The notes beneath the pieces were generated by a model. The model did not search any database and was not told the origin of the DNA. It saw nothing but the letters and a program-made list of their open reading frames with translations. A stretch of 64,000 nucleotides of DNA from Methanotrichaceae archaeon (lineage in GTDB: Archaea > Halobacteriota > Methanosarcinia > Methanotrichales > Methanotrichaceae): assembly GCA_963803145.1 (NCBI GenBank), contig CAWDLW010000008.1:480001-544000 (forward strand). The letters are read 5' to 3'. Of this stretch, positions 4,569 to 22,577 are shown in pieces. Numbering within the stretch: the first letter of the stretch is position 1; each line of letters begins with the position of its first letter. The translations under genes and the position numbers were made by a program.

Positions 4569-4733
4569 TCAATCTCACCACTTATATTTCTGGAATCTTC
4601 TTCCGGAGAAGAGTTAGGAGCAGCCCCACGGGCGTTGTAGGGCGCTAGTAAAGCCTTTAGCATTAGCCCCAGATAGGAAATGTAGTATCTTAAATTAGCT
4701 GCAGCCCCCAAACGTAAAATCAGGATGGTTCTA
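4569..4733. repeat. Repeat R copy 0 (degenerate)
   Basis: tcaatctcacca...gagttaggagcagccccacgggcgttgtagggcgctagtaaagcc...ttagccccaga aligns to the R consensus. Confidence 0.7.
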
Positions 4734-4838
4734 TAATATCATCTTGGATTGAATTCTCTTGAAGAACGTTATTTTGTGAATTAATAAATATTTAGGAACT
4801 AAGAGCAGAAAAATATACAATAAAAAAATTAGTGAAGC

Positions 4839-5678
4839 TTAAAGCTGCATAAATATCGCTATAGCATCATTCATCTTCTTGAGCCCAAGTAGCGCATTCA
4901 TCTTATTTATTTGTGCCTGGCTGTTAGACGGATCGATTGTTAGCGTGGCATTAAACGCCTGTATAGCATCAGCGTAATTTCCGGCTGCCATTAGAGCGAA
5001 ACCTTCAGCGTTATACGCCTGTGTATAGTTTCGATCAATCTTCAGAACCTGATCGAAGTTCTGCACTGCCTTGGCGGATTCACCTGCGGCCATAAGTGAG
5101 ACACCTTGCTTATAAAGGGCATCTTTACTCTTCGGATCAAGAGCTAGGACCTGATTGTATCTCACGATGGACTCGTTGTACCTTCCTAATTTCTGAAGAA
5201 GATTGCCCTCCCTTTGCCAATTGGCCTTATTATTTGGTGCTAGCATCGTTGTTTCGTTTGCTGCTGTATAAGCGTTGGAATAATCCTTGAGTGCATTATA
5301 ATCAGCATATAAGCCTGACCAGGCATCCGCATTGTTTTTATCGATCGTCGCGGCCTTGCTGTATGATTGCACAGATGCATTATAATTTTTCAAAGCCCTC
5401 TGAGCATCGCCCATATGTACCCAGCCATCTGTGTAGCTGGCATTTTGAGCAACTGCCTTACTAAAGTACTCAAGGGCACCTGTATAGTTGTTGGCTGCAT
5501 ACAGCTTACCTCCCTTCCAATCAAAGTAGTCTGCCTCCTGAGCAAAACAGATAGCACTCAAGATACAAAAGCACACCATTACACCTAATATTTTCAAGAT
5601 AACTCCTCCTGAACCTCCTATAGGGTCCAAGTGTTTGGATAATATTGAATGCATATTAAGCCTTCGGCTATAACTCAA
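4839..5678 (-). CDS. Secreted TPR-repeat protein
   Basis: Signal-like segment (CILSAICFA) then TPR repeats; paralog of 26241-27002 and 27046-27804; true start probably downstream of the ORF start. Confidence 0.85.
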   Translation of the reverse strand: MSYSRRLNMHSILSKHLDPIGGSGGVILKILGVMVCFCILSAICFAQEADYFDWKGGKLYAANNYTGALEYFSKAVAQNASYTDGWVHMGDAQRALKNYNASVQSYSKAATIDKNNADAWSGLYADYNALKDYSNAYTAANETTMLAPNNKANWQREGNLLQKLGRYNESIVRYNQVLALDPKSKDALYKQGVSLMAAGESAKAVQNFDQVLKIDRNYTQAYNAEGFALMAAGNYADAIQAFNATLTIDPSNSQAQINKMNALLGLKKMNDAIAIFMQL

Positions 5679-5890
5679 TTGCTAACCTTATAAGCCATTA
5701 TGACCCGAGTATATTGTCAAAGTTATCCGCCTCCTGAGCTATACAGATAGCGCTCAGGAGGAAAAGCATATAATTACGCATAACATCTTTAGGACTTACC
5801 CTCTACAATTTAGCCATGTTCTTTATAGCCCCTAAGCTTAACATCAATGATATTAGCCCATTATGCAACACAGCATCCTGGAGTGAAATC

Positions 5891-6262
5891 TCACGATATA
5901 TGCCTTAGCGGTCTATTCGCTATTGTAAAACTTCGTCCATTTTCGCCGATCATTTTCAGAGCTTTAGCAGCACTTAACCGCACGTTGCTATCTTTATCTT
6001 TTGCGAGCACCTGGAGCAGTGGCATTCTAGCTTTTGTATCTACAATCTCCCCAAGAGCATCAGCAGATCCACCTCGAACTGCGCTATTATCGTTTTGGAG
6101 TGCCTGAATCAACGGATCTATTGCAGGTTTTCCAATTCCTGCGAGAGCTTTGTAGCTGCTATTCGAACATCGCTATCGTTATCCCCTAGCACCCGAATTA
6201 AAGGATCGATAGCTCTAATATCTTGTATATTCCCAAGCGAATGTGCAGCCTCCGCTCGCACT
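5891..6262 (-). pseudogene. HEAT/PBS-repeat protein C-terminal fragment
   Basis: Nearly identical to the C-terminus of 25013-26158 (IQALQN.NSAV.GG.ADALGEI); frameshifted, N-terminus absent. Confidence 0.8.
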
Positions 6263-6489
6263 TTATTAAACAGCTGAGTTATGCTTATCTTATATCAGCT
6301 AGTTAGTTTTTCTTTGTGCCTTGCTATGAAAAACATTCGATTATCGCTATCTAGCGACCATTTTTCATTCTTCGGGCACGATTCAACCCTTACCTGAGAA
6401 TCATAGTGTTTTGTGTCTTCGTGGTGATCGTCCGTCGTTTATTTAACTGCCAAGCCAACAGCATTTCACCATTTAGCCTTGGCACAACC

Positions 6490-7233
6490 TCAAAGAGAGA
6501 AACCCTCCAGATTTATCTCATCCAACCGGACCGACCCATTGACCGCCTTGGCGCTCATCTCATATTTCCCGGATGGAAATCCCGTCATATTAACGCCAAT
6601 GTTGAAGTTGCCGTTCACGATCACCTTTTTGATCAGCGTCATGGTCAGGTTCACCCTGGAAGCATTCTCCGCAGCATCACCGAAGATTTTGATCTGATAG
6701 CCCCCAGGCGATAGCATATCGTTAGTAGTAGTCGCTGTGCCGTTACTACCTGCCTCGACCTGCGAGGTGACCCATATTCTCGTGAATTCAGGCTTAAAGA
6801 CCATGCTCGAGTTCTGATAGCTTCCCTGATCCATCTGTTCACCAATGTTCAGGTTCTTCACCTTGCTTGCAGATACTGCAAAGTTGTTGGGCTTTCCAGG
6901 AATGTAGACGCCGGGGAGAGTATAGCTATAGCCGCTTTTGCCTGGGTTTGAGGTCACATTGAAGCCCTCGATGGGAGGAATGTGGATGCCGACAAGGTCG
7001 TAGCTGTAGCTGCCCTCGAATACCGGGGTTGTATCCTGGATTGTGAAGTTTAGGAGAAGCTCGCCTGAGCCTACTCCCGAGATCCTCATCTCGCCGGGTG
7101 TGAGTCCCACGCATGAGAGCAGGATGCAAATTACTGCCAATGACCTCAGGATTGTAGGGCGCTGCCTGCTTTTCAAAGCTGTCGCTTGCCGGCTGTTGCG
7201 ATCATCTTCGTTTCGTCTCCATATTCCCTTCAA
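6490..7233 (-). CDS. Secreted hypothetical protein (paralog of 23832-24590)
   Basis: Signal-like segment LAVICILLSCVG; long near-identical stretches with 23832-24590; 5' end abuts repeat R1. Confidence 0.75.
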   Translation of the reverse strand: MKGIWRRNEDDRNSRQATALKSRQRPTILRSLAVICILLSCVGLTPGEMRISGVGSGELLLNFTIQDTTPVFEGSYSYDLVGIHIPPIEGFNVTSNPGKSGYSYTLPGVYIPGKPNNFAVSASKVKNLNIGEQMDQGSYQNSSMVFKPEFTRIWVTSQVEAGSNGTATTTNDMLSPGGYQIKIFGDAAENASRVNLTMTLIKKVIVNGNFNIGVNMTGFPSGKYEMSAKAVNGSVRLDEINLEGFSL

Positions 7234-7340
7234 CCTTATCGCCCTTATTTCAGGAAACCTTCCCCCAGCGAGGGGCTAGGGGTAGCCCGTCCGGCGACTG
7301 AGGATGCTTGGAAACCCCTAGTTATAGCCCCAGAAGATAA
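7230..7340. repeat. Repeat R copy 1
   Basis: tcaaccttatcgcc...ccttcccccagcgaggggctaggggtagcccgtccggcgactgaggatgc...gttatagccccaga. Confidence 0.9.
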
Positions 7341-7374
7341 CCTTACAGTGCCAATCTGAAAAGCTAAGAAATAC

Positions 7375-7609
7375 TCATGTTGCTGAGAGCCAATCCTCAC
7401 GAGAGATTCCGCCTTCGTGGAGGATCTGGAGTAACAGCTTCACACCGATGTCTTTCCCATGGTGTGGATTTGGGATGCTGACATACACCCGCCCTTCGGC
7501 CAGCTCTCTGACCATATAGGCATGATCCGACCCAGGATAAGGTCCCTGAAAACCTAACTTCCTGAGCCTTCGGATAAGCTCATTTCTGGTAACAGGAAGA
7601 AGCCTGAGA
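7375..7609 (-). pseudogene. hicA: HicA toxin lacking an obvious start codon
   Basis: Manual translation LRLLPVTRNELIRRLRKLGFQGPYPGSDHAYMV...IPNPHHGKDIGVKLLLQILHEGGISREDWLSAT*; no in-frame start codon found just upstream. Confidence 0.75.
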
Positions 7610-7856
7610 CTTTGGCTATCGGCTCCGTAGAGACATCAATAGTGATGCCATCTATAGCGGGAACTGTATCACCCATCTTAAGCCGGAGAGCTATCCAACC
7701 TTCGATAACCCCAATGAGGTCCTCGCGGCATTCCTCGATTGTGTCACCTATAGCTATCACACCCCGAAGGCCATCTACAGTGGCCATATAGGTGCCGTCC
7801 TCAAGCGTCTCATATTTAGCATGTCTTAAAGCTGCCTGAATGTATTCTGCAAACAT
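7554..7856 (-). CDS. hicB: HicB antitoxin (runs on into hicA)
   Basis: EDGTYMATVDGLRGVIAIGDTIEECREDL HicB signature. Confidence 0.85.
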   Translation of the reverse strand: MFAEYIQAALRHAKYETLEDGTYMATVDGLRGVIAIGDTIEECREDLIGVIEGWIALRLKMGDTVPAIDGITIDVSTEPIAKVSGFFLLPEMSLSEGSGS

Positions 7857-8315
7857 ATCAAGATCTTATTGTACCTCGAAGGGATTTAACATTGATTGCC
7901 CTTTATGAATTGTGGTTGATAGTTCGTCGTTTGTTTAGTTGTTACGCCAGTAGCCTTTCACAGCACGGGTATAAAGAGATAATTCCTCACTAATATGTTA
8001 GTTAAATTCGTTCGTCTTTGTGCCTTCGTGGTGATCATCCGTCTTTGTTTATATATAATCCAATGTTTTTCGTCGTTCTTGGTGTCTTTGTGCCTTTGTG
8101 TTTGGCTGTCACTGAACGCTCACCACAAAGACACGAAGGCACAAAGAACTGAATTGGGAGCTTGAATTTATTGGGCGATTAGTCAAAAGAAAGACTATAA
8201 TTCCTGCAAGAGCTTTTGTGGCTGCCTTATGAACACAGGTATCATTATCTTCTGGTGCCCTTTCCGGCAAAGTCGACCTCAATTTAAAGATCCGGTATCT
8301 TTGCGATTACGAATT

Positions 8316-8409
8316 CACTACAGAGACTCAAAGGCGCAGAGAGACTTTAACATTATCTGGACTCTCTCCAAGCGTTTCGTTCTCTGTGTCTCCGTGCCTC
8401 TGTGGTGAG
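8316..8409. repeat. Palindromic CACAGAG(G/A)CACAGAG-type element
   Basis: cactacagagactcaaaggcgcagaga ... tctctgtgtctccgtgcctctgtggtg; relatives at 8080-8146, 8474-8606, 15140-15232, 16495-16572, 21711-21738. Confidence 0.7.
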
Positions 8410-8580
8410 CTTGTTCGTTCTGCTGTTGATTAAAGTAGGCTGTATGTTTGATAACTGAGCTAACGACTTCTCATCACAAAGGCACAAAGACACAAAGGAC
8501 GCGAGAAAGAACTATTATCTTGACATTTTGTCTTGGCTATGTTCCTTTCTTCCAGCTAAATCGTCGTCTTTGTGAGTTCT

Positions 8581-8766
8581 TTGTGCCCTTTGCGTCTTCG
8601 TAGTGATCGTTCGCTGTTTGCTTATAATTCTGAATGGTTGTCATTCCATACGGCCGGAAATCACTAATCCAGTTCCAATCAACCTTATCGCCTATATCCA
8701 GAACCTTCCCCCGGATAGGGGGTAGGGGCTAGGGGCAAACTGCCAGGGCGATTGAGCGCGCTATTA
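8581..8766. repeat. Repeat R copy 2 (left arm plus core, right arm missing)
   Basis: tcaaccttatcgcc at 8679, ccttcccccggataggggg, ggcgattgagcgcgcta; directly abuts the PIN gene stop codon. Confidence 0.85.
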
Positions 8767-8767
8767 T

Positions 8768-9196
8768 TCAATCGTCTATGTCCAGAATCTCTGCGATAGC
8801 TTTCGTGATACCCCATACCTTGATTATCTCTGCTTCCCGAATCGTCCTGAAATGGTTATCGTTGGTTATCAAGATGGCACCAGTCTCAAGACAAGTGGCA
8901 GCATGAACTATATCGGCATACTGGCCTTCAGGAAAGAACGGCCGGCAGGCCTCTAGGCTCTTATGTGAGGGATCTACAAGGCGAGTTCTGTTATGAATGA
9001 GCTCATAGAGATGATAGAAACCAAGGAATCTATGAATATACTTCTCATATTCAAGCAGGAGCTCATCGTTCACAAACAGCTCTGCATCGCTCAGCAATAG
9101 AGCCGTAAGTAGATCCGTGCTTCTAGTCCAGCCGCTCTTTACAGCTGCAATGACCAGATTGTTATCTAGAACGAACCTCGAATCTCTTCTTAGCAA
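8768..9196 (-). CDS. PIN-domain (VapC-like) toxin
   Basis: FVLDNN, E, D..H and ITNDNHF PIN motifs; overlaps an AbrB gene. Confidence 0.85.
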   Translation of the reverse strand: MLRRDSRFVLDNNLVIAAVKSGWTRSTDLLTALLLSDAELFVNDELLLEYEKYIHRFLGFYHLYELIHNRTRLVDPSHKSLEACRPFFPEGQYADIVHAATCLETGAILITNDNHFRTIREAEIIKVWGITKAIAEILDIDD

Positions 9197-9425
9197 GACG
9201 ATTGCTTTCCTCCTCGATATCTTGCTCGATCTTGCCGTGATCCATGCCTTTTGCCTTTTCTATGGCCTCCTCAAGCATAGATCTTAGATCAATCTTCTTG
9301 ACGATGAATGTGCCTTCTCCCAAAGAGTCTATAGCGAACTCGTCTCCCTCCTTCAGATTCGCCTTCCGTCTGAGATCGCTCGGCAGCAGGATTCTCCCTT
9401 TATCATCTAGCTTTGTAACTGGCAT
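9162..9425 (-). CDS. AbrB/MazE-family antitoxin
   Basis: KLDDKGRILLPSDLRRKANLKEGD AbrB signature. Confidence 0.9.
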   Translation of the reverse strand: MPVTKLDDKGRILLPSDLRRKANLKEGDEFAIDSLGEGTFIVKKIDLRSMLEEAIEKAKGMDHGKIEQDIEEESNRLAKKRFEVRSR

Positions 9426-9620
9426 ATGAGATAATCACCATTTCTCCCACATATGGACTTTATGGTATAAGAAGATATCAGCATGAGATATACATGAAGA
9501 TAATTTCATTCATCTTTGTGGCTGATAGTTCGTTGTTTAGTTGTTATGCCAATTACCTTTCATAATACAGGTATAATGAAATGATTCCTCTCCAATATGT
9601 TATTTAAATTCGCGCACCTT

Positions 9621-9860
9621 TGTGCCTCTGTGCCTTCGTGGTGATCATCCGTCTTTGTTTATAATCACAGCCAGACATCCTCTTCCATACAGGCAAGAAT
9701 CTTGTCCCCGTCAACCTTATTGCCCTTATTTCCGGAAAACTTCCCCCAGCGAGGGGTTATGGGCAACCCGTGGGTTGCGGGTAGCCCGTCCGGCGATTGA
9801 GGACGCCAGTAAAACCGCTAGTAGTAGACCCAAACGAGAAAGCCAGCGCAATTCTGTAAT
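9621..9860. repeat. Repeat R copy 3 (near-full unit)
   Basis: Left arm gtgccttcgtggtgatcatccg...cagccagacatcctcttccatacaggcaagaat, core from 9711, right arm cccaaacgagaaag. Confidence 0.9.
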
Positions 9861-9861
9861 T

Positions 9862-9970
9862 TTAGAAAATCTTTACATGTATTACCAAAAGCTGGATGTT
9901 CGAAAGCCGAATATAGAAATATATTAGTATCGATGAAAATTCTCTCGCCTGGTGGGACTTCTGATAGCAT
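9862..9970 (-). pseudogene. PIN/VapC toxin truncated at repeat R3
   Basis: Manual translation MLSEVPPGERIFIDTNIFLYSAFEHPAFGNTCKDFLK, then runs into R3. Confidence 0.75.
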
Positions 9971-10158
9971 TAGTCCCATATCTCCATATCTATGATCTCG
10001 TCTGCGAGCTCTTTGGGGATCTTCATCTTGCCGTGAAATTCTTCAACGGGATTCTTTTTAACTTCTATTTCGACCTCTTCACCTTCCTTCAAGTTCAGAT
10101 CTCCAAGCGGCCTTAATATATTGCATTCGTAGACGGCTCTCACTTTCATGAAAATCAC
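9970..10158 (-). CDS. AF2212-like (DUF104) antitoxin
   Basis: VRAVYE..ILRPL..LNLKEGEEVEIEV; translationally coupled to the truncated PIN gene. Confidence 0.85.
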   Translation of the reverse strand: MIFMKVRAVYECNILRPLGDLNLKEGEEVEIEVKKNPVEEFHGKMKIPKELADEIIDMEIWD

Positions 10159-10228
10159 GCTATAAATTATCGCCCTGGTAGTTCTTAAAGCATTTGGCAG
10201 TATTCAGAAATCAATCATCAAGTCCAGT

Positions 10229-10324
10229 TCGACCTTGAAGCATATGTTCCTGGAACCTTTTGCCGTCGAGGGGTTAGGGACAGCCCGCACGGGCGTTGGA
10301 GCGCGCTAGTAAAACCATTATTTT
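10229..10324. repeat. Repeat R copy 4, left part (interrupted by IS110)
   Basis: gaggggttagggacagcccgcacgggcgttggagcgcgctagtaaaaccatta; resumes at 11858 with ttttagcctcagaaga. Confidence 0.85.
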
Positions 10325-10362
10325 CCCATGAAAAACCTTCCTCAATTAAAAGAAATGGTGTG

Positions 10363-11622
10363 CTATCCACCCCCTACCGAATGTCTATTCTTCAAGTGAT
10401 AAAAGGCGTCTACGATAGCAGCCACTCCATCCTTTAATCGCTCATTTTTGGATAGATAGAGGAGGTCCCTTTTGACTGGTTTTGATGCAGCTGTAGTGCA
10501 GTTGTTCTCTTGATATAGCTCTTGATTAATCAACAGATGATAAATTATTGTGATTAATTTCCGTGCTAAAGCAACGACCGCTACATTGTAGCTCTTTCTG
10601 GCCGACAATCTATGGAAGTACCTTGAGAGCTTGTTCTTGTTATTTCTCATCTTAGCTATCACTTGAGCTATCTCGACAAGAATAGTTCTTAGACTCTTGG
10701 ACCCCTGTTTCGTAATACCACATTGCTTCTTTTTCCCTGCAGATTCGTGTAGTCCAGGAACCAGTCCACACCATTTGGCGATTTGTTCTGGGGTTTGGAA
10801 ATCGCGATAGTCACCGATTTCTGCCAAGATGGTCGACCCTGATCTAAAACTTATTCCTGGAATTGACATAACTATTGCCAGATCTTTAGCGCTTTTCTGA
10901 AATCTGCTAAGCACTTCAAGACTTGTTTTATCTATCTTCTTTTTCAGAAGATCAAGGAGCTCTAGATTATCCTTAACAAGCATTCTCGAAGTATCATCAA
11001 GACCGTTTGCAAGAGCCGCTTTGATGACGTCTCGCTTTTTCTTGATCTTCTTTGAAGTGATTCTGTCCAGGATCGAGTCTGCATCCTTGCCTTCAACCAG
11101 GCCATCCAAGATAATCCTGCCTGATTTACCAAAGATGTCTGAAATACAAGAACTCAGCTTTATGCCGCAAAGTGCTAGATACTTATGAACTCGATTCCTA
11201 AGCTGAGTTTGAGTCTTTATATATCCTGATCTGGCACGGGTCATCATTCTGAGGGCTCTATCCTCATTGGAAAAGACTCTTGATCTCTTGATTTTGCCAT
11301 CCAAGCAGTTACCTGCAATCCTCTTAGCGTCATGAGAATCCGACTTATCCCCTACAAGTCCTTTGACCATCCATGGATTTGCTACAATTGTATCAATCGA
11401 TGGACTCAGGCAATCGTAGACTGGAAACCAGTAAACACCTGTAGCTTCAAATGCTACTTGCTCGCAATTATTGGCTATGAGCCAATTCCTGAATCTCTCT
11501 AGCTCCGAACGAGTCGTGCCAAACTGTTCCTGGATTTCAGTCCCATCTGCATCTTCGATCGTGGCTACTATGAGATCTTTATGGACATCTGCTCCGCAAA
11601 CTCTATTTCTTCGTTTGCCCAT
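10363..11622 (-). CDS. IS110-family DEDD recombinase/transposase
   Basis: GADVHK, FEATG, KSDSHDA, SIPGI, GLVPGLHESAG (catalytic Ser), VALARKL. Confidence 0.95.
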   Translation of the reverse strand: MGKRRNRVCGADVHKDLIVATIEDADGTEIQEQFGTTRSELERFRNWLIANNCEQVAFEATGVYWFPVYDCLSPSIDTIVANPWMVKGLVGDKSDSHDAKRIAGNCLDGKIKRSRVFSNEDRALRMMTRARSGYIKTQTQLRNRVHKYLALCGIKLSSCISDIFGKSGRIILDGLVEGKDADSILDRITSKKIKKKRDVIKAALANGLDDTSRMLVKDNLELLDLLKKKIDKTSLEVLSRFQKSAKDLAIVMSIPGISFRSGSTILAEIGDYRDFQTPEQIAKWCGLVPGLHESAGKKKQCGITKQGSKSLRTILVEIAQVIAKMRNNKNKLSRYFHRLSARKSYNVAVVALARKLITIIYHLLINQELYQENNCTTAASKPVKRDLLYLSKNERLKDGVAAIVDAFYHLKNRHSVGGG

Positions 11623-11635
11623 ATATGTCGCTATC

Positions 11636-11788
11636 CTGATATGGGCAGATGATTAAGATTAATCCCTTATAGGGGGTAATTTCCCATGCGCGTTCAACGA
11701 CGCAGCCCCGTATTCACGGGATTATTGGCCAGTTTTAGCCGCGAGATCATGATCTCAAAAATAAAGCTGCCTTCACTGCCCATATCAG
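11636..11788 (-). ncRNA. Candidate IS110 bridge RNA
   Basis: 13-bp perfect IR (11636-11648 / 11776-11788) encloses the target match agttttagcc, the hairpin gagatc-at-gatctc, aaaaataa and the donor match tttcccatg. Confidence 0.6.
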
Positions 11789-11857
11789 ACTAATCATAGT
11801 TGGCCATGAATGTGAGGTTTTTCATCCGCCACGTATGACCCTTAAGGATCATGGGCG

Positions 11858-11930
11858 TTTTAGCCTCAGAAGAAGTGTTGGCTTTGAATTATATAAGCAG
11901 GCCCAAACGAGAAAGTGATAGTTATTCTTG
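11858..11930. repeat. Repeat R copy 4, right part
   Basis: ttttagcctcagaagaagtg...gcaggcccaaacgagaaag matches the right arms of R3, R5 and R9. Confidence 0.8.
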
Positions 11931-11936
11931 ATTACT

Positions 11937-12461
11937 TCAAGGCATGCCCAAGCGTTCCTTAATAGATTCAATATCTTTCTGCATTTGCCTGAACTGTATT
12001 GAAAACCCTGGCTGAAGCTCATCTCTCATGCCCTTCATCTCTTCCAAGACTTGGGGAATTGCATCCGTATTTCCCTTTACTGCCTTTAGGTCACCTTTCA
12101 TCTCCTTCAGATCATCTTTCATCTCAAGCAGAATCGGTATAGCCTTATTCATTTGTGTTGCGGAATTTATGTTGGCGAACTGCCAGAGGGGCATGACATC
12201 GCCGGTGAACTCCTCAGAGTTTATATTATCTACCCTGGCAAGCTGAGGACGTTCTTTCATGGCTAAGTTATAGAGCCTCGTGACTCTTTGTTCATCGCCT
12301 TCAATAAGAGCTATGACAACCTGCTTCCCATTCTCTTCATCATTGTAGACTTCAAAGCCTCTGAGAGCTAAACGCATAGCTAACTCCGTAAGATAGGGCC
12401 TATATCCTACATTGTGGACTTGAGAGCCGGTTATCGTGACCTTGAGTTTCATTTTCCTCAA
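11937..12461 (-). CDS. Acylphosphatase-domain protein with C-terminal coiled coil
   Basis: GSQVHNVGYR...GFEVYN; heptad-rich C-terminus. Confidence 0.85.
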   Translation of the reverse strand: MRKMKLKVTITGSQVHNVGYRPYLTELAMRLALRGFEVYNDEENGKQVVIALIEGDEQRVTRLYNLAMKERPQLARVDNINSEEFTGDVMPLWQFANINSATQMNKAIPILLEMKDDLKEMKGDLKAVKGNTDAIPQVLEEMKGMRDELQPGFSIQFRQMQKDIESIKERLGMP

Positions 12462-12529
12462 TTGATCTTATTGTTCTTGATCTACTTCATTATTTCTATT
12501 GCTGATGGGCGAACTTCCACGCCCTTTTT

Positions 12530-12770
12530 GGTTGGTAGTTCGTCGTTTGTTTACGATTACGGATATCCTCTTTCACAAAGGAGGAAATCGATAATCTAGT
12601 CCCCATCAACCTTATCGCCTCTATTTACCAAATCCTTCCCCCGAAGAGGGGTTAGGGGTAGCCCGTCCGGCGATTGAGGACGCTAGGAAACCATTAGTGT
12701 TAGCCCCAGAAGAAAGTGCAGTTTTTAGAATTAGAAGGAGCTCCCAATGCGAAGTCAGAGCAGTTCGGGA
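12530..12770. repeat. Repeat R copy 5
   Basis: Core from 12606: tcaaccttatcgcc...ccttcccccgaagaggggttaggggtagcccgtccggcgattgaggacgctagg...tgttagccccaga. Confidence 0.9.
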
Positions 12771-12787
12771 ATTTGCACCATAGAGAA

Positions 12788-13122
12788 TTAGGTATTATCT
12801 ATAAGCTGCATAAGCTCTTCCTTGCTGATCTGAGTATCCTTAGCGATCCGTTGTCTAATAATCTGAAAGCCTATCTTTGCTAAAGCCTTAACAACTCTTT
12901 CACCCTCAACCGGCCTCAGCTTCGACAACCTGAACACCTATGAACTCAGGGATTTCTATATCTTTCTCAGCCTCAAGGTAGGCCTCTTCGCCTCTTTTGT
13001 CCTATCCAGCAGATCATCCAAGGCTCCTTTGCCTGAGTGTGGCAACCAGGAAGCGATGGGACGGTAGCTACATAATAGCCATCTTCGTCTTTTTCTACTA
13101 AAACGCTGAACTTCTTTTTCAT
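12788..13122 (-). pseudogene. Degraded hicBA operon
   Basis: HicB MKKKFSVLVEKDEDGYYVATVPSLPGCHTQAK... is frameshifted; HicA LSKLRPVEGERVVKALAKIGFQIIRQR|IAKDTQISKEEL lacks the central GSH segment. Confidence 0.75.
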
Positions 13123-13133
13123 GCGTATACACT

Positions 13134-13529
13134 TTAATTCTGCATCTGAAAATGTTTATCGTTAGTCCATATAGGACAGCGCAGTTGCATAGCCAGGGCG
13201 AGAATTGGCGCATCTTTTTCATCGATTTTCTTCATGACCTCAAAAGCATCTTTCATCATGGGGAGGTACAGATCACGGGGCACAACTTGAATAGCTTTCA
13301 AAATGAAACTCTTTGCATATTCGAACGATAGAGACTGAGAACTTTTCTTCCTTTTGGCCTCGATGTAAGCAAGGTAGCCATTTATCTCAATCATCCCGTA
13401 TTCGAGGAAGTACAAATTAAAATATCCCGATTTTATTAACCTTGCATTTATAGAATGGTCTTTGAGGAGAGCCGCAATTAGAATATTGGTATCAACTACA
13501 AGCCCAGCTTCTTCTTCTCTTCCAGCCAT
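13134..13529 (-). CDS. PIN-domain (VapC-like) toxin, C-terminus apparently frameshifted
   Basis: VVDTNILIAAL, DEKDAPILALA, IWTNDKHF; the expected tail IKVYT lies in another frame. Confidence 0.85.
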   Translation of the reverse strand: MAGREEEAGLVVDTNILIAALLKDHSINARLIKSGYFNLYFLEYGMIEINGYLAYIEAKRKKSSQSLSFEYAKSFILKAIQVVPRDLYLPMMKDAFEVMKKIDEKDAPILALAMQLRCPIWTNDKHFQMQN

Positions 13530-13705
13530 ATTCTCTCACGCACTTCCTCCAAGCCCTCCAGATCGGACTCGTTGAGATCAAGCTCCTCTATTGCCCTTTC
13601 AAAGAGCACCCATCTAGCCTCTTCCTCTTTTACCAGCTCATCGATTTTCTTTTTGAGAGGCTTTAAGGGAATACCTTCAGGAACCTCTACTTCGATAGTG
13701 CCCAC
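13496..13705 (-). CDS. Putative antitoxin of the adjacent PIN toxin
   Basis: Small acidic protein overlapping the PIN gene start. Confidence 0.7.
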   Translation of the reverse strand: MGTIEVEVPEGIPLKPLKKKIDELVKEEEARWVLFERAIEELDLNESDLEGLEEVRERIWLEEKKKLGL

Positions 13706-13779
13706 GAAACCACCAAATGGTCTTTTATTCTTATTGTTCTTAAAGCCTTTCTCGATATTTAGAAATTAGTTTTCATACC

Positions 13780-13960
13780 TTTGTGCCTTTGCGTCTTCGT
13801 GGTGATCATTCGGCCCCGCTGTTTATGCAGCCGGACATCCCCTTCCATATAGGCAGAACCTTGTCCCGTCAACCTTATCGCCTGCGTGTTCAAACTTCCC
13901 CAGCGAGGGGTTAGGGGAGCCCGCGGGCGAGAGCGGCTAGTAAACCATTAGTTTTAGCAG
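13780..13960. repeat. Repeat R copy 6
   Basis: Left arm plus core from 13869, ending taaaccattagttttagc. Confidence 0.85.
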
Positions 13961-14029
13961 AAAACGTGTGGGTTTCAATTGTTTTGTAAAGTTATCAGTT
14001 ATTGACTTATTATATCGAAAACCGCCCGC

Positions 14030-14250
14030 CATGCGAAATAATATCCAAAGAGTTGACAGAACCGTTTAGAGCTGCCACCTGAAATGGGTCAAAGCCTATC
14101 TTCCCAGCCAAATCCTCTTATCATCCATTCAATTTAGATAATGGCCGGTTCATGAAGTGCAGGCATCTTCAATTACTTATTTCAAGTTCCATCATCTTTC
14201 TTTTATACGGAAGATTGGCAGAAGGTTAAAAAGTTATCGTTTATTGAGCC
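14030..14250. repeat. Conserved element B copy 1 (others at about 15283, 16690, 21810, 34030)
   Basis: Shared core gccaaa(c/t)cctcttatcatccattcaatt(c/t)agat(t/a)atggc. Confidence 0.7.
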
Positions 14251-15498
14251 TGGAATTCTTGCGTAATAGCAGCGTGTCTTAGTGCATTCACGGTGAGCTA
14301 TCTAGGAAGTTTGGTACCTATCGATATTACTGAGATTTGGTAAGGGATTTAGTGCAGGTTTGGGAGTTCACAAAGTGGTTTACGCGCACAAAGAGTCCCC
14401 GCCAAAATATTGACGAGAGAAGATCACTGCTATGATCTACGTTCCTCTTCCTATCTTGATATAGTTGATCTTATCCTGCGGCACAGGTTTTACAACCACA
14501 ATCAAAACCTCTTGTTGCGCAAGGTTGCGATCCACGTATACACGAGCCCATTTTATCGATTCGCTTGTACATCGGATCAACTAGAGTCTCTCTCTTTTCT
14601 CCAGCTATCTGTATCTCCATATCACAATTCACCGGCTCATTCATCGTCATGATCGTAGTTATATCTAATCTCCATGTATGGCTAACTATGATAGTATAAT
14701 TAGCCATATTAGCGACAAAATGGTTATATATCCTTAAGTCATCATTAAAGTTGGTGAATTGAGCATGACAGGAATCGATGAGACCAAATGCGGCCACTCG
14801 ATAAAAACCGCAGCCGCCACTGGCACATGTAAAGATGATCTGGTAATGATTATTGAGAGCATTGACCTCGTGGATTGCGAGTTGAATAAGACTCGCAGGG
14901 TTGCATTAGGTCTATTGGAACAGGTTGAATCAAAGGAGATTGTATAAGGATAATTACGAATGTGATTCTCTATACTTGGCTTCGGCTTCATCTCCAACTT
15001 ATCGTTCTGCACTTGAATGATAGAGCTGAATCCTATCGTCTCATGGATAGTTCATCGTTTGATTATGACTACAGCTAGTGCCCTTCCCAGCAAAATCGGC
15101 CTTAATTTAAATATCTAGTATCTTTGCGATTACGAAACTCATCAAAGAGACACAGAGGCACAGAGAGACTTTAATATTATCCAGACTCACCCCAAGAGTT
15201 CCGTCTCTCTTGTCTCCGTGCCTCAGCTGCGAGTTTCGTTTTATCCAGCAATAGCCGAACGAACCAAGAATCCCATTTCATTCGCCAAACCCTCTTATCA
15301 TCCACTCAATTAAGGTTATAGCGATCTCAAATCTATGGCCTCTGGATGAGACCATTTTGATATACCTTGGCAAAATGATAAGGCCTTCAGGAATTAATAA
15401 ACTTACCGTTTGCGCTGCAATGCCTGTTCCACGAAACAAACGGATCAAATCAGCCACACCACCTGCTTTTAATACTCAAAGCTCATATTAAATTCAAG

Positions 15499-16109
15499 AT
15501 GAAGCTCAGGGCGAGGATAGAAGGTCCGCGGGTCCACCGAGTAGGTTACCGGTTGTTTCTGGCCACCAGGGCCATAGATCTGGATCTTCCAGGATTCTCA
15601 GCTCAGAACCTGTAAAGGACGGACGACAGGTAATGCTTGCCTTCTTCGAGGGTGACCAGGGCCAGATTGAGGAGTTCAAAAGGTTTATTGAGGCAGATAA
15701 GCCTCCTGAGGCTGCCGTATCCTCGATCTCCTTCCAGGAATACGAAGGGCCGGTTGGAGATACAATGCTCTTTTACCAGAAGATGAGTTCGCAGCATCTA
15801 GGCAAAGGTATAGATGCCAAACTTAGAATGGAGAAGAAATAGAATAAAATGCTTGAGAACCAGGATACGACATCAGTATATTGAAAGAGGTTAAAGAGGA
15901 TACATCATCTATTCGCGATCTGCAGGCCCAGATGCTTGATAAGCAAGATCTGACCATAGGTTTGAAAGAGGTCAAGGAGGATACATCCTCCATGGCTCCG
16001 AACTCAAGAAAGACACTATGGATTCTATCCTGGAGAAATACTTAGAGCTCAGCCAAGAGATCGCTGAGATAAAGGCGACACTCTCAGAAATCAAGCAAAG
16101 GTCGCTTAA
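15499..16109 (+). pseudogene. Acylphosphatase-coiled-coil pseudogene, inverted relative to the array
   Basis: MKLRARIEGPRVHRVGYRLFL...; premature TAA near 15613, TAG near 15840 and frameshifts. Confidence 0.8.
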
Positions 16110-16199
16110 AAACCGGATTAATGCTGTCAACCAAGCCTGAAGGGCAAGGAGTTCAAGGTTGAGAGAACCGGATGAGCAATTTCACCTTTGTGAGCGCTG

Positions 16200-16352
16200 A
16201 CTCAATGGATCTATTGAGGTTTCCAATTTCTGCGAGAGCTCTTGTAGCCGCAGTTCGAACATCGCTGTCATTATCCCCTAGTGCATGAATCAATGGATCA
16301 AAGCCGCAGTATCTTGCAAATTCCTGAGCGAATATGCAGCCTCCGTTCGCAC
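16200..16352 (-). pseudogene. HEAT-repeat gene fragment
   Basis: Matches 6105-6262 and about 25222-25380, with the same breakpoint as the copy near 6260. Confidence 0.7.
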
Positions 16353-16934
16353 TTTACTAGACAGCTGAGTTATGCTTATCTTATATCAGCCAGTTAGTTC
16401 GTCTTTGTGCCTTTGTGTCTTCGTGGTGATCATCTGTCGTTTATAATTGGCTCTTCGCTGTTTCGTGTGAGTAAGGTAAAGCACTTATGACTTAACCACA
16501 GAGGCACAGAGACAAGAGAGAAAAAAAATAATAATGTTAAAATCCCTCTGTACCTCCGTGTCTCTGTGGTGAACGTACTCTAAGCTCCACTCGAAGGCAC
16601 AAAGTCTCTCAGGCCTATCTTGAATCTCCCCTATTGAATTGTAATCTCTTGATGAATGCAATCTTATGACTTATCTATCAATAACCAGACATGCGAATAA
16701 TATCCAAAAAGTTCCAGAGCCGCTACCTTCCAATATTTCCGCCAAACCCTCTTATCATCCTCTCAATTCAGATTATGGCGTCCTCAAACCCGGGGCTTTG
16801 ATACCACATTGTTTGGATTCAGCTGAATTACGTTTCAATCATCCTGCTCTGGCCAGATGATAACAATCCTCAAGGGCTTAAAAGCTTCCCCTGCCTATGT
16901 GATCAATTCCTTATTGCTGTCAATCCTTCTGGAT

Positions 16935-17190
16935 TGTGGTTGATCGTTCGCTGTTTGCATGTAGTTCGAGATGATTGTCCGTCCATGCGGCCGGAAATCG
17001 CCAGCTCCCATCAACCTTATCGCCTAAATCTAGAGCCTTCCCCCAGCGAGGGGCTAGGGGTAGCCCGTCCGGCGATTGAGGACGCTAGTAAAACCGCTAG
17101 TTTTACCTCCAGAAGAAAGTGTAGTCTTTTATAAATTATAATAGCAGATCCAAATGCGAATTTAGAACGGTTCTGGAATGTACGTTCTTG
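16935..17190. repeat. Repeat R copy 7
   Basis: Core from 17011: ccttcccccagcgaggggctaggggtagcccgtccggcgattgaggacgctagtaaaaccgctagtttta. Confidence 0.9.
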
Positions 17191-17272
17191 AGTATATCTA
17201 GTGCCCCTTCCAGCGAAGTAGACCTTAATTCCGAACTTTGAGGAGAACTTAACTTGAACGGGCAGTGGTTCA

Positions 17273-17605
17273 CTACAGATATGGATATAGACTATTTATT
17301 CTTTTAAGCAGCTCGACAGTATGATCTTTCTGAATGATCTCTGTGGTCTTACCATATACCTCATCATGATGAGCCACATACAAAAACACAATGCAATTAC
17401 CTATAATCATATAAGCAATAACAAAGGGATCAACATGAACCCCTCTCACGCCCTTCAGGCCATAGCTTTTAGGTTCACCCATCTCAGGATTGATTAGAAT
17501 TTGACCAAGTTTATTGATCAATCTGTCTTTAAGGGCTTTATCCTTCTTGGTCAGTTTTGAAAATTGCTTATCAAATTCAGGAACCCTGTGATATCTATAA
17601 GCCAT
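17273..17605 (-). CDS. RelE/ParE-family toxin
   Basis: FDKQFSKL...ILINPEMGEP..GLKGVRGVHV..FVIAY...AHHDEVY; likely start ATG at 17605. Confidence 0.8.
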   Translation of the reverse strand: MAYRYHRVPEFDKQFSKLTKKDKALKDRLINKLGQILINPEMGEPKSYGLKGVRGVHVDPFVIAYMIIGNCIVFLYVAHHDEVYGKTTEIIQKDHTVELLKRINSLYPYL

Positions 17606-17615
17606 AAAAGAGGGG

Positions 17616-17789
17616 TTAGAGGTCACTAAGAGAATTCAAAAACTCTTCTTTGCTATCATAGGTTTTGCCTTTTCCAGCCTTAAATTCCTTGATACCTCTG
17701 ATGACTCCTGCTGCAAACTCATTAGAAAGGAGGGCTTCAATATCTTCTGATTCTTCTTTCTTTGGAGCAGTATGAGCTACCTTTCCCAT
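17616..17789 (-). CDS. Antitoxin partner of RelE (57 aa, absent from the ORF track)
   Basis: Manual translation MGKVAHTAPKKEESEDIEALLSNEFAAGVIRGIKEFKAGKGKTYDSKEEFLNSLSDL*. Confidence 0.7.
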   Translation of the reverse strand: MGKVAHTAPKKEESEDIEALLSNEFAAGVIRGIKEFKAGKGKTYDSKEEFLNSLSDL

Positions 17790-17940
17790 TTAAATTAAGC
17801 CTCCATCGCAATATTGCGTGATAGGGATATTTAAGATTTCGCCCAAAGGATATTTTCTGTCTAGCTGGATACCATCCGGAAGGAAATTTCGGACTAATTA
17901 TGCGGAGGGATCTACAAGGCGAGTTCTGTTATGAATGAGC

Positions 17941-18060
17941 TCATAGAGATAATGGATGGTAATAAATGCAATGACTTCCTGTTGTTCTATCGAGAATAAA
18001 TCCAGCTTTCTCCAAAGCCCTGGCGAGCTTCTGTGGAGAGATAGAGGGCAGCTTAGGCAT
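17941..18060 (-). pseudogene. hicA: Truncated HicA toxin
   Basis: MPKLPSISPQKLARALEKAGFILDRTTGSHCIYYHP, then fused to PIN-derived DNA. Confidence 0.8.
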
Positions 18061-18289
18061 TGGCCTCCATTTCAACGGTTTGTTCAATGACAGTATTATC
18101 TGTGGGAACTTCTTCACCATGGGCAATAAGCGTCTCCACGTAACCTTTGATGGCATCCCTGACCATACACAGAGCTTCATCGATGGTCTTTCCAAAGGTT
18201 ACGCATCCTGGTAGAGTTGGAACCCATACGGTGTAAACCTCATCATCAGGCTCCCACCTAAGCATGACATGATACTTCAGTACATTCAT
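18053..18289 (-). CDS. hicB: HicB antitoxin
   Basis: YTVWVPTLPGCVTFGKTIDEAL..V.DAI. Confidence 0.9.
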   Translation of the reverse strand: MNVLKYHVMLRWEPDDEVYTVWVPTLPGCVTFGKTIDEALCMVRDAIKGYVETLIAHGEEVPTDNTVIEQTVEMEANA

Positions 18290-18507
18290 CGGTATCTAAT
18301 GTGCTCCTTCAATATATCTATTCTCTGCTACTATTGATTGAGGACGACTCGACGAGAGGTGCCCCGAATCCGACGATCGAAAAGATCAGAGAATCCACAA
18401 ACCTGATCCCAAGAGGATGCAATAGAAAGGAAACGCCCACAGCATAAAGCACCAGCACAGCCAGTGTATGGAAGTCGCCGTGATGGATGGGCGAGCCGTA
18501 GACAAGC

Positions 18508-18688
18508 ATGTGTTCTAGGTGTGGTCTAATAGTCAAAAAGGATCTCTCTGAAAGAATCCATAGCTGCTCGGAATGTGGCTTGTCTATGGATAGAGATCTG
18601 AATGCAGCAATCAACATTCTGAGATTGGGGATGCAATCTCTTCGCAAAAGCGACAGAAGCCCCGCATTTTAGGGCGGGGAGCGTTCAC
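18508..18688 (+). mobile_element. tnpB 3' fragment with IS605 right end (omega-RNA region)
   Basis: CSRCG...HSCSECGLSMDRDLNAAINI, hairpin ccccgc-attttagg-gcgggg, terminal TCAC at 18688. Confidence 0.85.
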
Positions 18689-18700
18689 AGATAACGAAAT

Positions 18701-19075
18701 TCAGATCTCCATTCGCTTGAACTCTTCAAGCTCTTCGGGCGTAAAATATTCATGCCATGCTTTTGGCTTGACTATGAGCACTGCCCTACCGTTCTTTTCC
18801 GCTTTTTCTACGTGCACCATCCCTGCGCGCTCAAGCCTTCGTGCAGCAGTATAAGTCTTGCCCGTCGTCCAGCCCATCTCTTTCGCCAACTGATATATGC
18901 TGTTCCCCGGGATCGCCTCTATTTTGTCGTAAAGCTCCAGGTCAGTATCGACGCCTTTTTCTTTCACGGCTTCAATAGCATGCTGGATATTTCTTCCGCG
19001 CATGCTATCATAACTGTCTTGGAATCTATTTAAAGATGGAAGCAAATCTGCGCAAGTTCCAAGGCCGTATTTCAT
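18701..19075 (-). CDS. Winged-helix HTH protein
   Basis: PGNSIYQLAKEMGWTTGKTYTAARRLERAGMV. Confidence 0.75.
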   Translation of the reverse strand: MKYGLGTCADLLPSLNRFQDSYDSMRGRNIQHAIEAVKEKGVDTDLELYDKIEAIPGNSIYQLAKEMGWTTGKTYTAARRLERAGMVHVEKAEKNGRAVLIVKPKAWHEYFTPEELEEFKRMEI

Positions 19076-20528: not shown

Positions 20529-20643
20529 CTTTTCCCTCCATTACAGTATTTTCTTCATGAAATGGCTCATACGCCGTTATAATTATTATCATCTTATCGC
20601 ATGATATTCGCTGAATCCGCAGCATATTATCATGCAGTTCCAG

Positions 20644-20876: not shown

Positions 20877-20897
20877 TTTTTGCTCCAGCTGAATTCA

Positions 20898-22532: not shown

Positions 22533-22577
22533 AACGGCCGATCTCTGCTCGTCTTTTATCGTCTAGATTCATCTTTT

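Follow-up and report, generated by a model that had tools for sequence, protein, structure and literature searches.

Guided IS110-family elements and the element in the window

RNA guidance has been shown experimentally for IS110-family DEDD recombinases, as the available portions of the published accounts state. IS621/ISEc21, of the IS110 group, combines a DEDD + Ser recombinase with a long non-coding end upstream of the gene, and its left-donor guide reads the right end of the element plus the core. The excerpts of the IS621 description further place two strand-specific guides around a stem-loop, both covering the core, with the left guide (A50-U58) before the right guide (G77-G80), the catalytic serine at S241 and the insertions in a host intergenic repeat (REP-like sites). 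Insertion into a host intergenic repeat is also described, in the corresponding excerpts, for ISPpu9 and ISPpu10; all insertions of ISPpu10 (IS110 group) lie in one repeat with a GC-rich hairpin beside the base-paired target, a stem-loop that acts as a second specificity layer and a 5' extension. In the IS1111 group (ISEc11, ISKpn4/IS5075, ISPa11), the seekRNAs have the guide that pairs with the top strand first, the non-coding region usually lies downstream of the gene, and some members are directed to repeated recombination sites (attC, Tn21 ends), as far as the available parts of those sources go. Elements of this group carry subterminal inverted repeats of 7-17 bp and terminal extensions of 7 and 3 bp. 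Among archaeal members of the family, ISC1229 of Sulfolobus is described in the available text as having binding sites for the CRISPR-repeat-binding protein Cbp1, which hint at repeat-like sequence inside an IS110 element; the likeness to our case is one of description, that text offering no guide interpretation.

The window, that is, the 64,000-nucleotide stretch of DNA analysed here, contains an element of about 1.53 kb that splits a copy of a repeat, R. In all likelihood, it is an autonomous IS110-family insertion sequence (IS) of a Methanotrichaceae archaeon. Its gene and ends are as follows.

10325-11857, minus strand: IS body without the flanking core T/A run, 1533 bp, with ends common to nine copies
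10363-11622, minus strand: transposase/recombinase of 419 aa, IS110 family (DEDD RuvC-like + Transposase_20 domains), from the ORF and domain matches
10246-10324, plus strand: R copy split by the IS (R4), left part; the right one begins at 11858 (ttttagcctcagaag)
11835-11857, minus strand: left-end terminus CG-CCCATGA and terminal hairpin (ATGATCCTTAAGGGTCAT), from junction and homologue comparison
11815-11825, minus strand: left-end internal inverted repeat (ATGAAAAACCT, transposase sense), which pairs with the right-end terminus at 10328-10338
10325-10338, minus strand: right-end terminus (..AGGTTTTTCATGGG, transposase sense), whose reverse complement is left-end CCCATGA with the internal repeat

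At the left junction, ...aaaaccatta-tttt (10321-10324) is followed by cccatg (10325-10330), and at the right junction catgggcg (11850-11857) is followed by tttt (11858-11861)-agcc. Empty copies of R read ..TAGTTTTAGCC.., giving TAG-TTTT-AGCC as the empty site, and the run common to both junctions, AAA in transposase orientation, is the core. The sequence-only reading had R4 split at these same junctions, and all the features that it described were found in the sequence.

Membership of the IS110 family is established by both domains (PF01548, E 1e-18; PF02371, E 1.9e-23), by the catalytic motifs and by site- and orientation-specific insertion with a short shared core, and the protein reaches 253.4 bits with NF033542, 'IS110 family RNA-guided transposase', for which the cut-off is 140. 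In an alignment to the transposase of IS621 (8wt6), the protein retains the D, E, D..D and ES motifs (element/IS621: GADVHKD/GIDTAK, FEATG/IEATG, DKSDSHDAK/NKTDTVDAR and HESAG/YESGS); the D, E, D and D of this alignment are those that we take to be catalytic, by their presumed numbering. The distant match to IS621 (phmmer, E 4.7e-12, 48.6 bits) and the full-length alignment to the IS5075 transposase (BLASTP, 25% over 365 aa, 82 bits) are pairwise scores from different programs.

The two ends of the element are related. When reverse-complemented, the 14 nt of the right end read as left-end CCCATGA together with the internal ATGAAAAACCT, forming a subterminal inverted repeat of 14 bp that is interrupted in the left end and falls within the IS1111 range, and the terminal extensions are 2 bp + core and 0 bp + core. 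A covarying end-to-end match of 9-15 nt is found in 12/12 representatives, and in 11 of the 12 the internal repeat, also covarying, is offset by 31-38 from the left end; the left end of the twelfth (L019) was not placed by the script. The terminal hairpin is kept, with other sequence (TGAGCCC..GGGCTCA), in class-3 homologues.

A predicted RNA scaffold and its guide segments

The non-coding DNA amounts to 235 nt upstream of the ORF versus 38 nt downstream. Most probably, and judging by what the recombinase family does, the upstream part encodes a conserved RNA scaffold, about 150 nt long, which a 13-bp stem closes and which presents a target-binding loop. Its predicted parts are as follows.

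11776-11788, minus strand: 5' arm of the outer 13-bp stem (predicted RNA CUGAUAUGGGCAG), invariant in 29 homologues
11767-11771, minus strand: 5' strand of the target-loop basal stem (predicted RNA GGCAG), pairing with 11727-11732 (CUGGCC, one bulged G)
11757-11766, minus strand: right-target guide (predicted RNA CUUUAUUUUU), antisense to core and right flank (AAAAATAA in this copy)
11743-11756, minus strand: stem-loop between the two target guides (predicted RNA GAGAUCAUGAUCUC; consensus GRGA-loop-UCYC), from the homologue alignment
11733-11740, minus strand: left-target guide (predicted RNA GGCUAAAA, up to GGCUAAAACU at 11731), sense to left flank and core
11690-11703, minus strand: stem-loop directly 5' of the donor guide (predicted RNA GCGUCGUUGAACGC), its stem invariant in 29/29 and its loop variable
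11680-11688, minus strand: left-donor guide (predicted RNA CAUGGGAAA), equal to element right end CATGGG plus core AAA
11636-11648, minus strand: 3' arm of the outer stem (predicted RNA CUGCCCAUAUCAG), 13 nt upstream of the transposase ATG

On the plus strand, ctgatatgggcag (11636-11648) and ctgcccatatcag (11776-11788) form the perfect 13-bp inverted repeat that had been read from the sequence, and between these arms lie tttcccatg (11680-11688), agttttagcc (11731-11740), gagatcatgatctc (11743-11756) and aaaaataaag (11757-11766). In 29/29 aligned homologues the outer stem stays invariant or near-invariant; since it never varies, covariation neither supports nor opposes it. In the basal stem of the target loop, two of the four predicted pairs (columns 22-64 and 23-63) are changed on both sides (GGCUG/CAGCC, GGUUG/CAACC, GGCCG/..GGCC), and at columns 36/48 the inter-guide stem-loop goes from G-C to A-U on both sides. 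A hairpin had indeed been proposed at this last place, but with a 6-bp stem and a 2-nt loop, which cannot form; what homologues conserve is a 4-bp GRGA/UCYC stem around a loop of about 6 nt. Across the alignment of 29 non-coding ends, 53 columns are invariant and those of the guides hypervariable, and the end of the element folds more stably than shuffled versions of it (z -3.75 and -3.95). An Rfam scan of positions 9000-13500 at E<=1 gave three sub-threshold matches, none of them in the non-coding end. By eye, long-range pairing between the flanks of the donor segment looks possible in several families, with no single consensus structure, and is not counted here.

Two of the internal segments match opposite halves of the R target, as had been proposed, one in the sense orientation (left flank + core) and one antisense (core + right flank); both cover the A-run core and they flank the small hairpin. 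The window has exactly two occurrences of AGTTTTAGCC, one within the IS and the other at 20860, where it lies in the right part of an R copy. Against typical R sites, the right guide matches at 8/10 positions, and in seven of the eight R insertions the position immediately following the core is mismatched. The third segment, tttcccatg, does correspond to the right end of the element itself, together with the core. Of the bridge-RNA layout that the sequence-only reading had envisaged, the two target guides and the left-donor guide stand; the order of the guides is not that of IS621. Three of the four expected guides are seen, since neither an antisense search nor a covariation scan of left-end positions, which gave no clear complementary signal, found a right-donor guide, and the 5' strand of the putative donor loop lacks consistent complementarity to the left end. 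Two candidates for this guide were rejected: the 5' arm of the outer stem (AUAUGGGCAG, resembling the antisense of GCCCAT) is unchanged where the left end becomes CCCTCATGA or CAATCATGA, and a 10-nt antisense match in one homologue, L025 (GAGGGUUUUA), is absent from relatives that share the segment and have other left ends.

The element resembles IS621 in its recombinase type, the position of its non-coding end, its paired guides around a stem-loop, its left-donor guide and its insertion into a host repeat, and differs from it in the core (CT in IS621, AAA here), in the invariant 13-bp stem that closes the RNA region, in the right-donor guide not found, in the archaeal host and in having the right guide first. 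The long left end, short right end and upstream RNA region are those of the narrow, IS621-like IS110 group, in which, however, the bottom-strand (left) guide lies 5' of the top-strand guide; here the top-strand guide is 5', as in the IS1111 seekRNAs. Placement upstream of the gene in turn sets the element apart from most of the IS1111 group, but the available part of the source names a few exceptions in the IS1111 cluster with an upstream region (ISMtsp17), so this arrangement may not be unprecedented.

Guide-target covariation among homologues

Relatives at E<=1e-40 are present in 53 of the 105 genomes of the order, and homologues with 40-83% aa identity occur across Methanotrichaceae and in metagenomes; the titles of the relatives (Methanotrichaceae/Methanosaeta) agree with the archaeal host that had been suggested. 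Among these homologues the scaffold is near-invariant, and only the guide segments vary, in step with the flanks. Agreement of the left guide with the left flank of the same element reaches 8/9 or better in 17 of 22 guide classes, which, the homologues being related, are not fully independent, as against 8 of 462 cross pairings; none of 2000 permutations reached 17, the maximum being 5. The five classes below 8/9 include a subfamily with flank ..CAC against guide ..AAC. For the right guide, hypervariable at its position in homologues and complementary there to their right flanks, a match of 7/8 or better to the own right flank is found in 6/12 classes and in 6.1% of 132 cross pairings. An unbiased column-by-position scan had the left-guide columns (alignment columns 53-56) as its top signals, and the donor guide covaries with five right-end types (AUGGGAAA, AUAGGAAU, AUGUGAAG, AUGCGAAA and AUGGCAAU). 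Covariation of guides and targets, which the sequence-only reading had named as a check, is strong and exceeds both the cross-class and the permutation controls.

In favour of chance, or of a fragment of R captured inside the IS, the matches to R within the element span just 8-10 nt and are rich in A/T. Yet relatives carry, at the same scaffold positions, other sequences that match their own flanks, beyond what cross-pairing and permutation controls yield, and the two halves, being in opposite senses and split by a conserved hairpin, are not a copy of R; we give this explanation next to no weight. Another explanation is that the segments act as DNA, either as subterminal guide DNA that pairs with the DNA of the target or of the ends in a single-stranded intermediate, as in IS200/IS605, or as target-like protein-binding sites. 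The evidence gathered here is all at the DNA level, and the covarying inverted repeats between the ends could be protein or DNA sites. On the other hand, the protein belongs to a family of DEDD recombinases in which RNA guidance has been demonstrated, compensatory changes mark the stem-loop scaffold in which the guides lie, as is the case for RNA guides, and one guide is sense and the other antisense, both over the core, as in bridge RNAs. Action as DNA is, in our view, very unlikely.

We propose with considerable confidence that the insertion site is chosen via a bridge-RNA/seekRNA-type guide encoded in the left, upstream non-coding end, because the scaffold is constant, the guides covary with the flanks and the donor segment covaries with the right end. 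The scaffold would present a target-binding loop, its right guide antisense to core and right flank and its left guide sense to left flank and core. The donor segment CAUGGGAAA would read the right end and core as joined in an excised circle, CATGGG-AAA-CGCCCATG (predicted junction ..TTTTTCATGGG-AAA-CGCCCATGATCC); we infer both the formation of this circle and the place where the right-donor end is read. The DEDD/Ser recombinase would exchange strands at the core and place the IS in one orientation in R, between TAG-TTT and T-AGCC. The mechanism is a known one, that of bridge RNAs and seekRNAs, of which this would be an archaeal example.

Repeat R, CRISPR arrays and possibly reprogrammed guides

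The genome contains nine copies of the IS, 97-100% identical, on nine contigs. Further copies in R had been put forward as a check, and eight of the nine do lie at one position of R, in the same orientation and with R on the right-end side; the left-end junction shows R in seven of these eight, the C9 copy running off its contig. The ninth (C25) is in non-R DNA, and its flanks (GGGCTAAAA and AAATAAAGCG) match both guides over 14 contiguous nt (GGCUAAAA plus the complement of GCUUUAUUUU). The 8-mer GGCTAAAA occurs 207 times, eight of these being left junctions of the IS. The pattern used left 178 sites unclassified, at least six of which look by eye like empty R copies, and only one of the 178 coincides with an insertion, where the right flank matches too. 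Among R copies whose left half is perfect, about 18 hold no IS.

R itself is a repeat dispersed genus-wide. At least 84 copies lie on 21 contigs, and the two sister genomes have it too; the earlier claim that the guide is aimed at R holds, and the view of R as solely an array repeat does not. Copies of R follow one another in the same orientation at distances of 1-5 kb, with small variable genes, e.g., toxin-antitoxin pairs, between them. R also contains a GC-rich, covarying hairpin (CGCGC..GCGCG / CGTCC..GGACG) about 20 nt from the insertion point; it resembles the hairpin of the ISPpu10 repeat, but is situated on the side of the right flank. R was rejected as an integron attC-like hairpin: the folds of two R copies, on both strands, did not exceed shuffled sequences in stability (z -0.23, 0.43, 0.40 and -1.53). 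We saw no match in R to what we take to be the attC core motifs, and no match to an integrase family was obtained among 39 ORFs chosen from the 80 listed in positions 1-40000.

In one sister clade, the guide is GAUUGAAAC and the insertions lie inside CRISPR arrays; the target segments of a class-3 relative are GAUUGAAAC / CAAGUUU, for which ATTGAAAC would be the expected sites. Rearranged junctions are seen at sister elements in CRISPR arrays of other genomes. They are the one observation that bears on the suggestion that such elements recombine R copies, which finds no support in this genome. The same junctions, together with the runs of R between small variable genes, could also fit a domesticated host recombinase, in place of a selfish IS, the element or some of its copies serving to shuffle R-bounded cassettes. 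The near-identical copies dispersed over the contigs, however, make the pattern of a mobile element; two of them are broken by other ISs and a mini derivative without the gene exists, related genomes have R and not this IS, and suitable R copies stand empty. Domestication is accordingly a highly improbable reading, and we retain that of a guided, mobile IS.

More tentatively, and with rather less than even confidence, we suggest a distinct Methanotrichaceae clade of bridge-recombinase elements with a permuted RNA (upstream, top-strand guide first, invariant closing stem, no recognisable right-donor guide), the guides of which may have been naturally reprogrammed many times onto repeat families, namely R and, in the sister clade with guide GAUUGAAAC, the 3' end of the CRISPR repeat. 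Such elements might colonise arrays and rearrange them, CRISPR included, via guide-directed or IS-IS recombination.

The locus offers a worked archaeal example of probable bridge/seekRNA guidance and a natural reprogramming series, in which one near-invariant scaffold comes with at least 22 left guides and the targets can be read from the flanks. Its IS110-type position and IS1111-type guide order bear on the relationship of the two groups and on the permutability of the RNA architecture. A preprint, in its available part, links the IS110 recombinase to archaeal Nop5, and archaeal members with readable RNAs are therefore useful comparison material. Targeting a lineage-specific repeat, or CRISPR repeats in relatives, would be a way to abundant safe sites in archaeal genomes, and it points to a possible route by which such elements could remodel repeat arrays.

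The element and its host repeat

On the minus strand at 10325-11857, the insertion sequence splits R4, a copy of the dispersed host repeat R. Both junctions, the perfect inverted repeat of the non-coding end and the matches that it encloses are as the sequence-only reading had described them. That reading had also placed a hairpin with a 6-bp stem and a 2-nt loop between two guides; the segment is present, but this stem-loop cannot form, and relatives instead have a 4-bp stem and a loop of about 6 nt. A slash marks a junction here and below.

Features of the element (window positions)
10325-10330, plus strand: cccatg, at the left-hand junction aaaaccatta-tttt/cccatg
10363-11622, minus strand: sole long ORF within the element, 419 aa
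11636-11648 and 11776-11788: arms of the perfect 13-bp inverted repeat
11680-11688: tttcccatg, match to the element's own end, between the arms
11731-11740, plus strand: agttttagcc, between the arms
11743-11756, plus strand: inter-guide hairpin segment gagatcatgatctc, read from the sequence
11757-11766, plus strand: aaaaataaag, between the arms
11850-11857, plus strand: catgggcg, at the right-hand junction catgggcg/tttt-agcc

The transposase possesses both IS110-family domains (PF01548, E value of 1e-18; PF02371, 1.9e-23) and scores 253.4 bits with the NCBIfam equivalog "IS110 family RNA-guided transposase", above its cut-off of 140. It is distantly related to the solved recombinases of IS621 and ISCro4 (E values of 4.7e-12 and 7.8e-9), and the catalytic D, E, D..D and ES motifs are retained in the alignment with them.

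Nine copies of the element, 97 to 100% identical, were found in the genome (4.13 Mb, 51 contigs), of which the window represents C8:480001-544000. Six are full length, the copy on contig C9 is truncated by the contig end, and those on C15 and C25 are broken by other multicopy insertion sequences of 1084 bp (C15:17411-18495; matched at 28 other places in the genome, at some only in part) and 1227 bp (C25:148493-149720; matched at 11 other places), respectively. Eight of the nine copies sit in R at the same position and in the same orientation, the left part of R abutting the same end of the element (..GCGCGCTAG[GT]AAAACC[AG]TTAGTTT/CCCATG), and the other junction reads CATGGGCG/TTTTAGCCCCAGAAG in all seven R-borne copies where it is visible. 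The ninth, on C25, lies outside R between GGGCTAAAA and AAATAAAGCG in transposase orientation. Comparison with empty R copies (TAG-TTTT-AGCC) shows that both junctions share an A/T run of three bases, from which the target in transposase orientation is GGCT-A-AAA-CTAAYGG and the junction of a putative circle intermediate would be CATGGG-AAA-CGCCCATG. By eye, a T/A-rich, TATA-like stretch lies at 10339-10362, 12 to 22 nt inside the right end, the short end downstream of the gene (TTCTTTTAATTGAGG in transposase sense), and similar stretches occur in the right ends of relatives (TTTTATG, TTTTTTTAAG, TTTTATTTAG); it could drive outward transcription into the flank, or transcription across the circle junction. 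A mini derivative of roughly 88 bp beyond the window (C8:285877-285965) comprises only a related left and right end (CGCCCATGACC...GGTTTTTCATGGG); AAAA/AAA flanks it, and its site, immediately behind an R copy (..TTAGCCCC), does not match the present guides.

R is about 95 to 130 nt long and, by a fuzzy core match, has at least 84 copies; these are spread over 21 contigs, occur in both orientations, and frequently form same-orientation runs with copies 1 to 5 kb apart. Within the window the core is matched nine times, always on the plus strand, with a single compound copy accounting for two of the matches; the copies (4586-22766 and 36249-36289) are 0.5 to 5 kb apart. Small variable genes encoding PIN/MazE, PIN_2, ParE, HicA, acylphosphatase-domain, TPR, and HEAT proteins lie between them; the minus strand carries most of these genes, which include toxin-antitoxin pairs and three acylphosphatase-domain genes, and the layout looks like a cassette array. 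None of the 39 window ORFs scanned matched an integrase family. A small GC hairpin within R shows compensatory variation (CGCGC..GCGCG, CGTCC..GGACG, CGCCC..GGGCG), and the repeat as a whole does not fold better than shuffled sequences. Full-length R also occurs in both of the other genomes that represent the genus, and three further genera have its core, which makes 8 of 105 genomes in all; the other R-bearing genomes lack this class of element. Tandem 30-nt repeats (21015-21164) lie within the ORF of an acylphosphatase-domain protein (20898-21491). The window further carries an IS66-type fragment (8-793, plus strand) and, near the element, genes for a DDE_Tnp_1/DUF772 transposase (28448-29386, plus strand) and a TnpB-like protein with OrfB_IS605 and Cas12f1-like TNB domains (31661-32824, plus strand).

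Guide segments and their covariation with the target

In transposase sense, the left end, the long non-coding end upstream of the gene, reads ..GGCAG-C-UUUAUUUUU-GAGAUCAUGAUCUC-GC-GGCUAAAA-CUGGCC... The 3' segment, or left guide, is identical to the top strand of the left flank plus the AAA core, and at R sites the identity is two bases longer (10/10). The 5' segment, or right guide, is antisense to the core plus the right flank: it pairs contiguously with AAAAATAA at the window copy; at typical R sites, 8 of 10 positions pair and the base that follows the core is mismatched; and at the C25 site it pairs with AAAATAAAGC at 10 of 10, so that all 14 nt are specified there by the 5' segment and GGCUAAAA. 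A single base in this segment separates two subtypes of the element: the C8, C34, and C25 copies have CUUUAUUUUU and the other six CUUUAAUUUU. A donor segment, CAUGGGAAA, lies 3' of the target guides and is identical to the right end together with the core. As a whole, the non-coding end folds more stably than shuffled sequences (z of -3.75 for 236 nt and -3.95 for 166 nt), and no Rfam family matches it.

Relatives of the transposase (E value of at most 1e-40, 31 to 83% identity) were found by protein search in 53 of the 105 genomes of the order, this one included, the close ones belonging to Methanotrichaceae/Methanosaeta. A common scaffold lies upstream of each gene: 29 different aligned non-coding ends share 53 invariant columns, which include the outer stem GAUAUGGGCAG and CUGCCCAUAUC, UGAAGG, and the stem-loop UGCGUC..GAACGCG, and the hypervariable parts are both target segments and the donor segment. 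Besides the outer stem and the invariant stem-loop, RNAalifold recovered a fourth hairpin as well as the hairpin and basal stem of the target loop; double-sided changes occur in 4 of the 28 pairs, the invariant stems being uninformative either way.

The variable segments go with the flanks: CCCUAAAC with CCCTAAA/C, GAUUGAAAC with ATTGAAA/C, CUGCGGAAAC with TGCGGAAAC, CACAAAGA with the same sequence, CACAAAGA, and CAUAGAAAG with CATAGAAAG. An exact-motif scan of metagenome contigs gave more than 119 stretches; 80 were retrieved, and the 36 of these that could be parsed yielded 28 distinct guide pairs. The guide-target covariation expected under the sequence-only reading was found across 22 left-guide classes (one representative per distinct left guide with a usable left flank), which are kin and thus not fully independent: 17 classes had at least 8 of 9 matching positions between the guide and its own flank, and 20 had at least 7. 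Of 462 cross pairings, 8 reached 8 positions, and none of 2,000 permutations reached 17 classes (maximum, 5). Right guides reached 7 of 8 positions against their own flank in 6 of 12 classes, versus 6.1% of 132 cross pairings. Single-base cases are informative as well, GGGAAG accompanying the target GGGA at locus L029 and GGGTAG accompanying GGGT at L034, and the donor segment changes in step with the right end, five versions being seen (ATGGGAAA, ATAGGAAT, ATGTGAAG, ATGCGAAA, and ATGGCAA). When all alignment columns were blindly scanned against all left-junction positions, the strongest signals fell on left-guide columns 53 to 56. The misses comprise one subfamily with flanks ending in ..CAC and guides in ..AAC; L033, L034, and L036 lie in poorly matching sites.

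The proposal of a bridge-type element whose target loop matches the array repeat is well supported at the sequence level: the element is a real, mobile, guide-carrying member of the IS110 family with its target loop set to the host repeat, and its non-coding end would act as an RNA guide. Only 8 of the 207 occurrences of GGCTAAAA in the genome are left junctions of the element, so that a matching left half alone does not attract it; 9 others are guide DNA within copies, 12 are empty R copies by pattern, and 178 were classed as other, among which 6 further empty R copies were recognized by eye, so that many suitable R copies are unoccupied. For ISPpu10, a repeat hairpin has been reported to add specificity, and the GC hairpin of R may do likewise.

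Sister elements in CRISPR arrays

Sister elements with the left guide GAUUGAAAC and 61 to 66% amino acid identity (L044, G076:C12:107000-117600; L049, G034:C1:2744000-2751300; L017, L022, and L051) are located within CRISPR arrays (37-nt repeats, period of about 73), always directly after the repeat 3' end (..ATTGAAAC). Three different repeat families are involved, and one array holds as many as three full elements and a partial one. At L017 (G079:C5), the repeats upstream (..CCGATAGGGATTGAAAC, 18 units) and downstream (..AAAACAAGGATTGAAAC) are of different types, pointing to a fusion of two arrays at the element; ordinary homologous recombination between copies of the element could also have produced this mixed array. 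At L044 (third copy, position 5802), the right end of one copy is joined to another exactly after the latter's own left-guide DNA (flank AAACAGGCCAAGATCC), so that guide-coding DNA acted as a target or recombination site; approximately the first 124 nt of this other copy are missing. The two junctions suggest rearrangement at such elements; as for the suggestion that R copies recombine with each other, nothing in our data shows such events.

Relation to IS110 and IS1111 systems

The IS621-type bridge RNA has a fourth guide, antisense to the core plus the left end. No such right-donor guide was found by searching the non-coding end or in the covariation scan. An arm of the outer stem resembles the left end yet does not covary with it, and a 10-nt antisense match to the left end, seen in one family, does not hold generally. 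The left end may be read in another way, an option favoured by the covarying inverted repeat of the ends, or the sampled left ends may vary too little and too closely with phylogeny to show the guide. The inverted repeat matches the last 14 nt of the right end to left-end CCCATGA together with a site 31 to 38 nt inside; the match is present in 12 of 12 representatives (the offset is uninformative for L019, whose left end is unplaced), against about 5 nt on average in shuffled controls.

In the published IS621 target loop, the order is stem, left guide (A50-U58, bottom strand), stem-loop, and right guide (G77-G80, top strand), with the core covered by both guides. The seekRNA paper places the top-strand complement first in IS1111-type RNAs and reverses this order in the IS110-type ISEc21; it locates the non-coding region upstream of the gene in IS110 types and downstream of it in IS1111 types, ISMtsp17 being one of a few exceptions. 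Judged by its sequence, our element is a mosaic, sharing the upstream RNA region and long left end with the IS110 type and the top-strand guide in first position and subterminal inverted repeats with the IS1111 type. The transposase of IS5075, of the IS1111 group, aligns over its full length with the element's protein (25% over 365 aa, 82 bits), a higher pairwise score than that of IS621, although the two scores come from different programs.

Archaeal IS110 recombinases are already known, a preprint counting 662 in 2,835 archaeal genomes, and homing of IS110 elements to REP-like repeats is well known. No paper linking Methanothrix with IS110 turned up in full-text searching, and the literature searched on IS110, bridge RNA, archaea, and CRISPR repeats described no such guides in archaea; the supplementary tables of the 2024 surveys, outside that search, may list some. 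The element adds an archaeal member to the known guided type of the IS110 family, with a predicted RNA layout that mixes features of both described groups.
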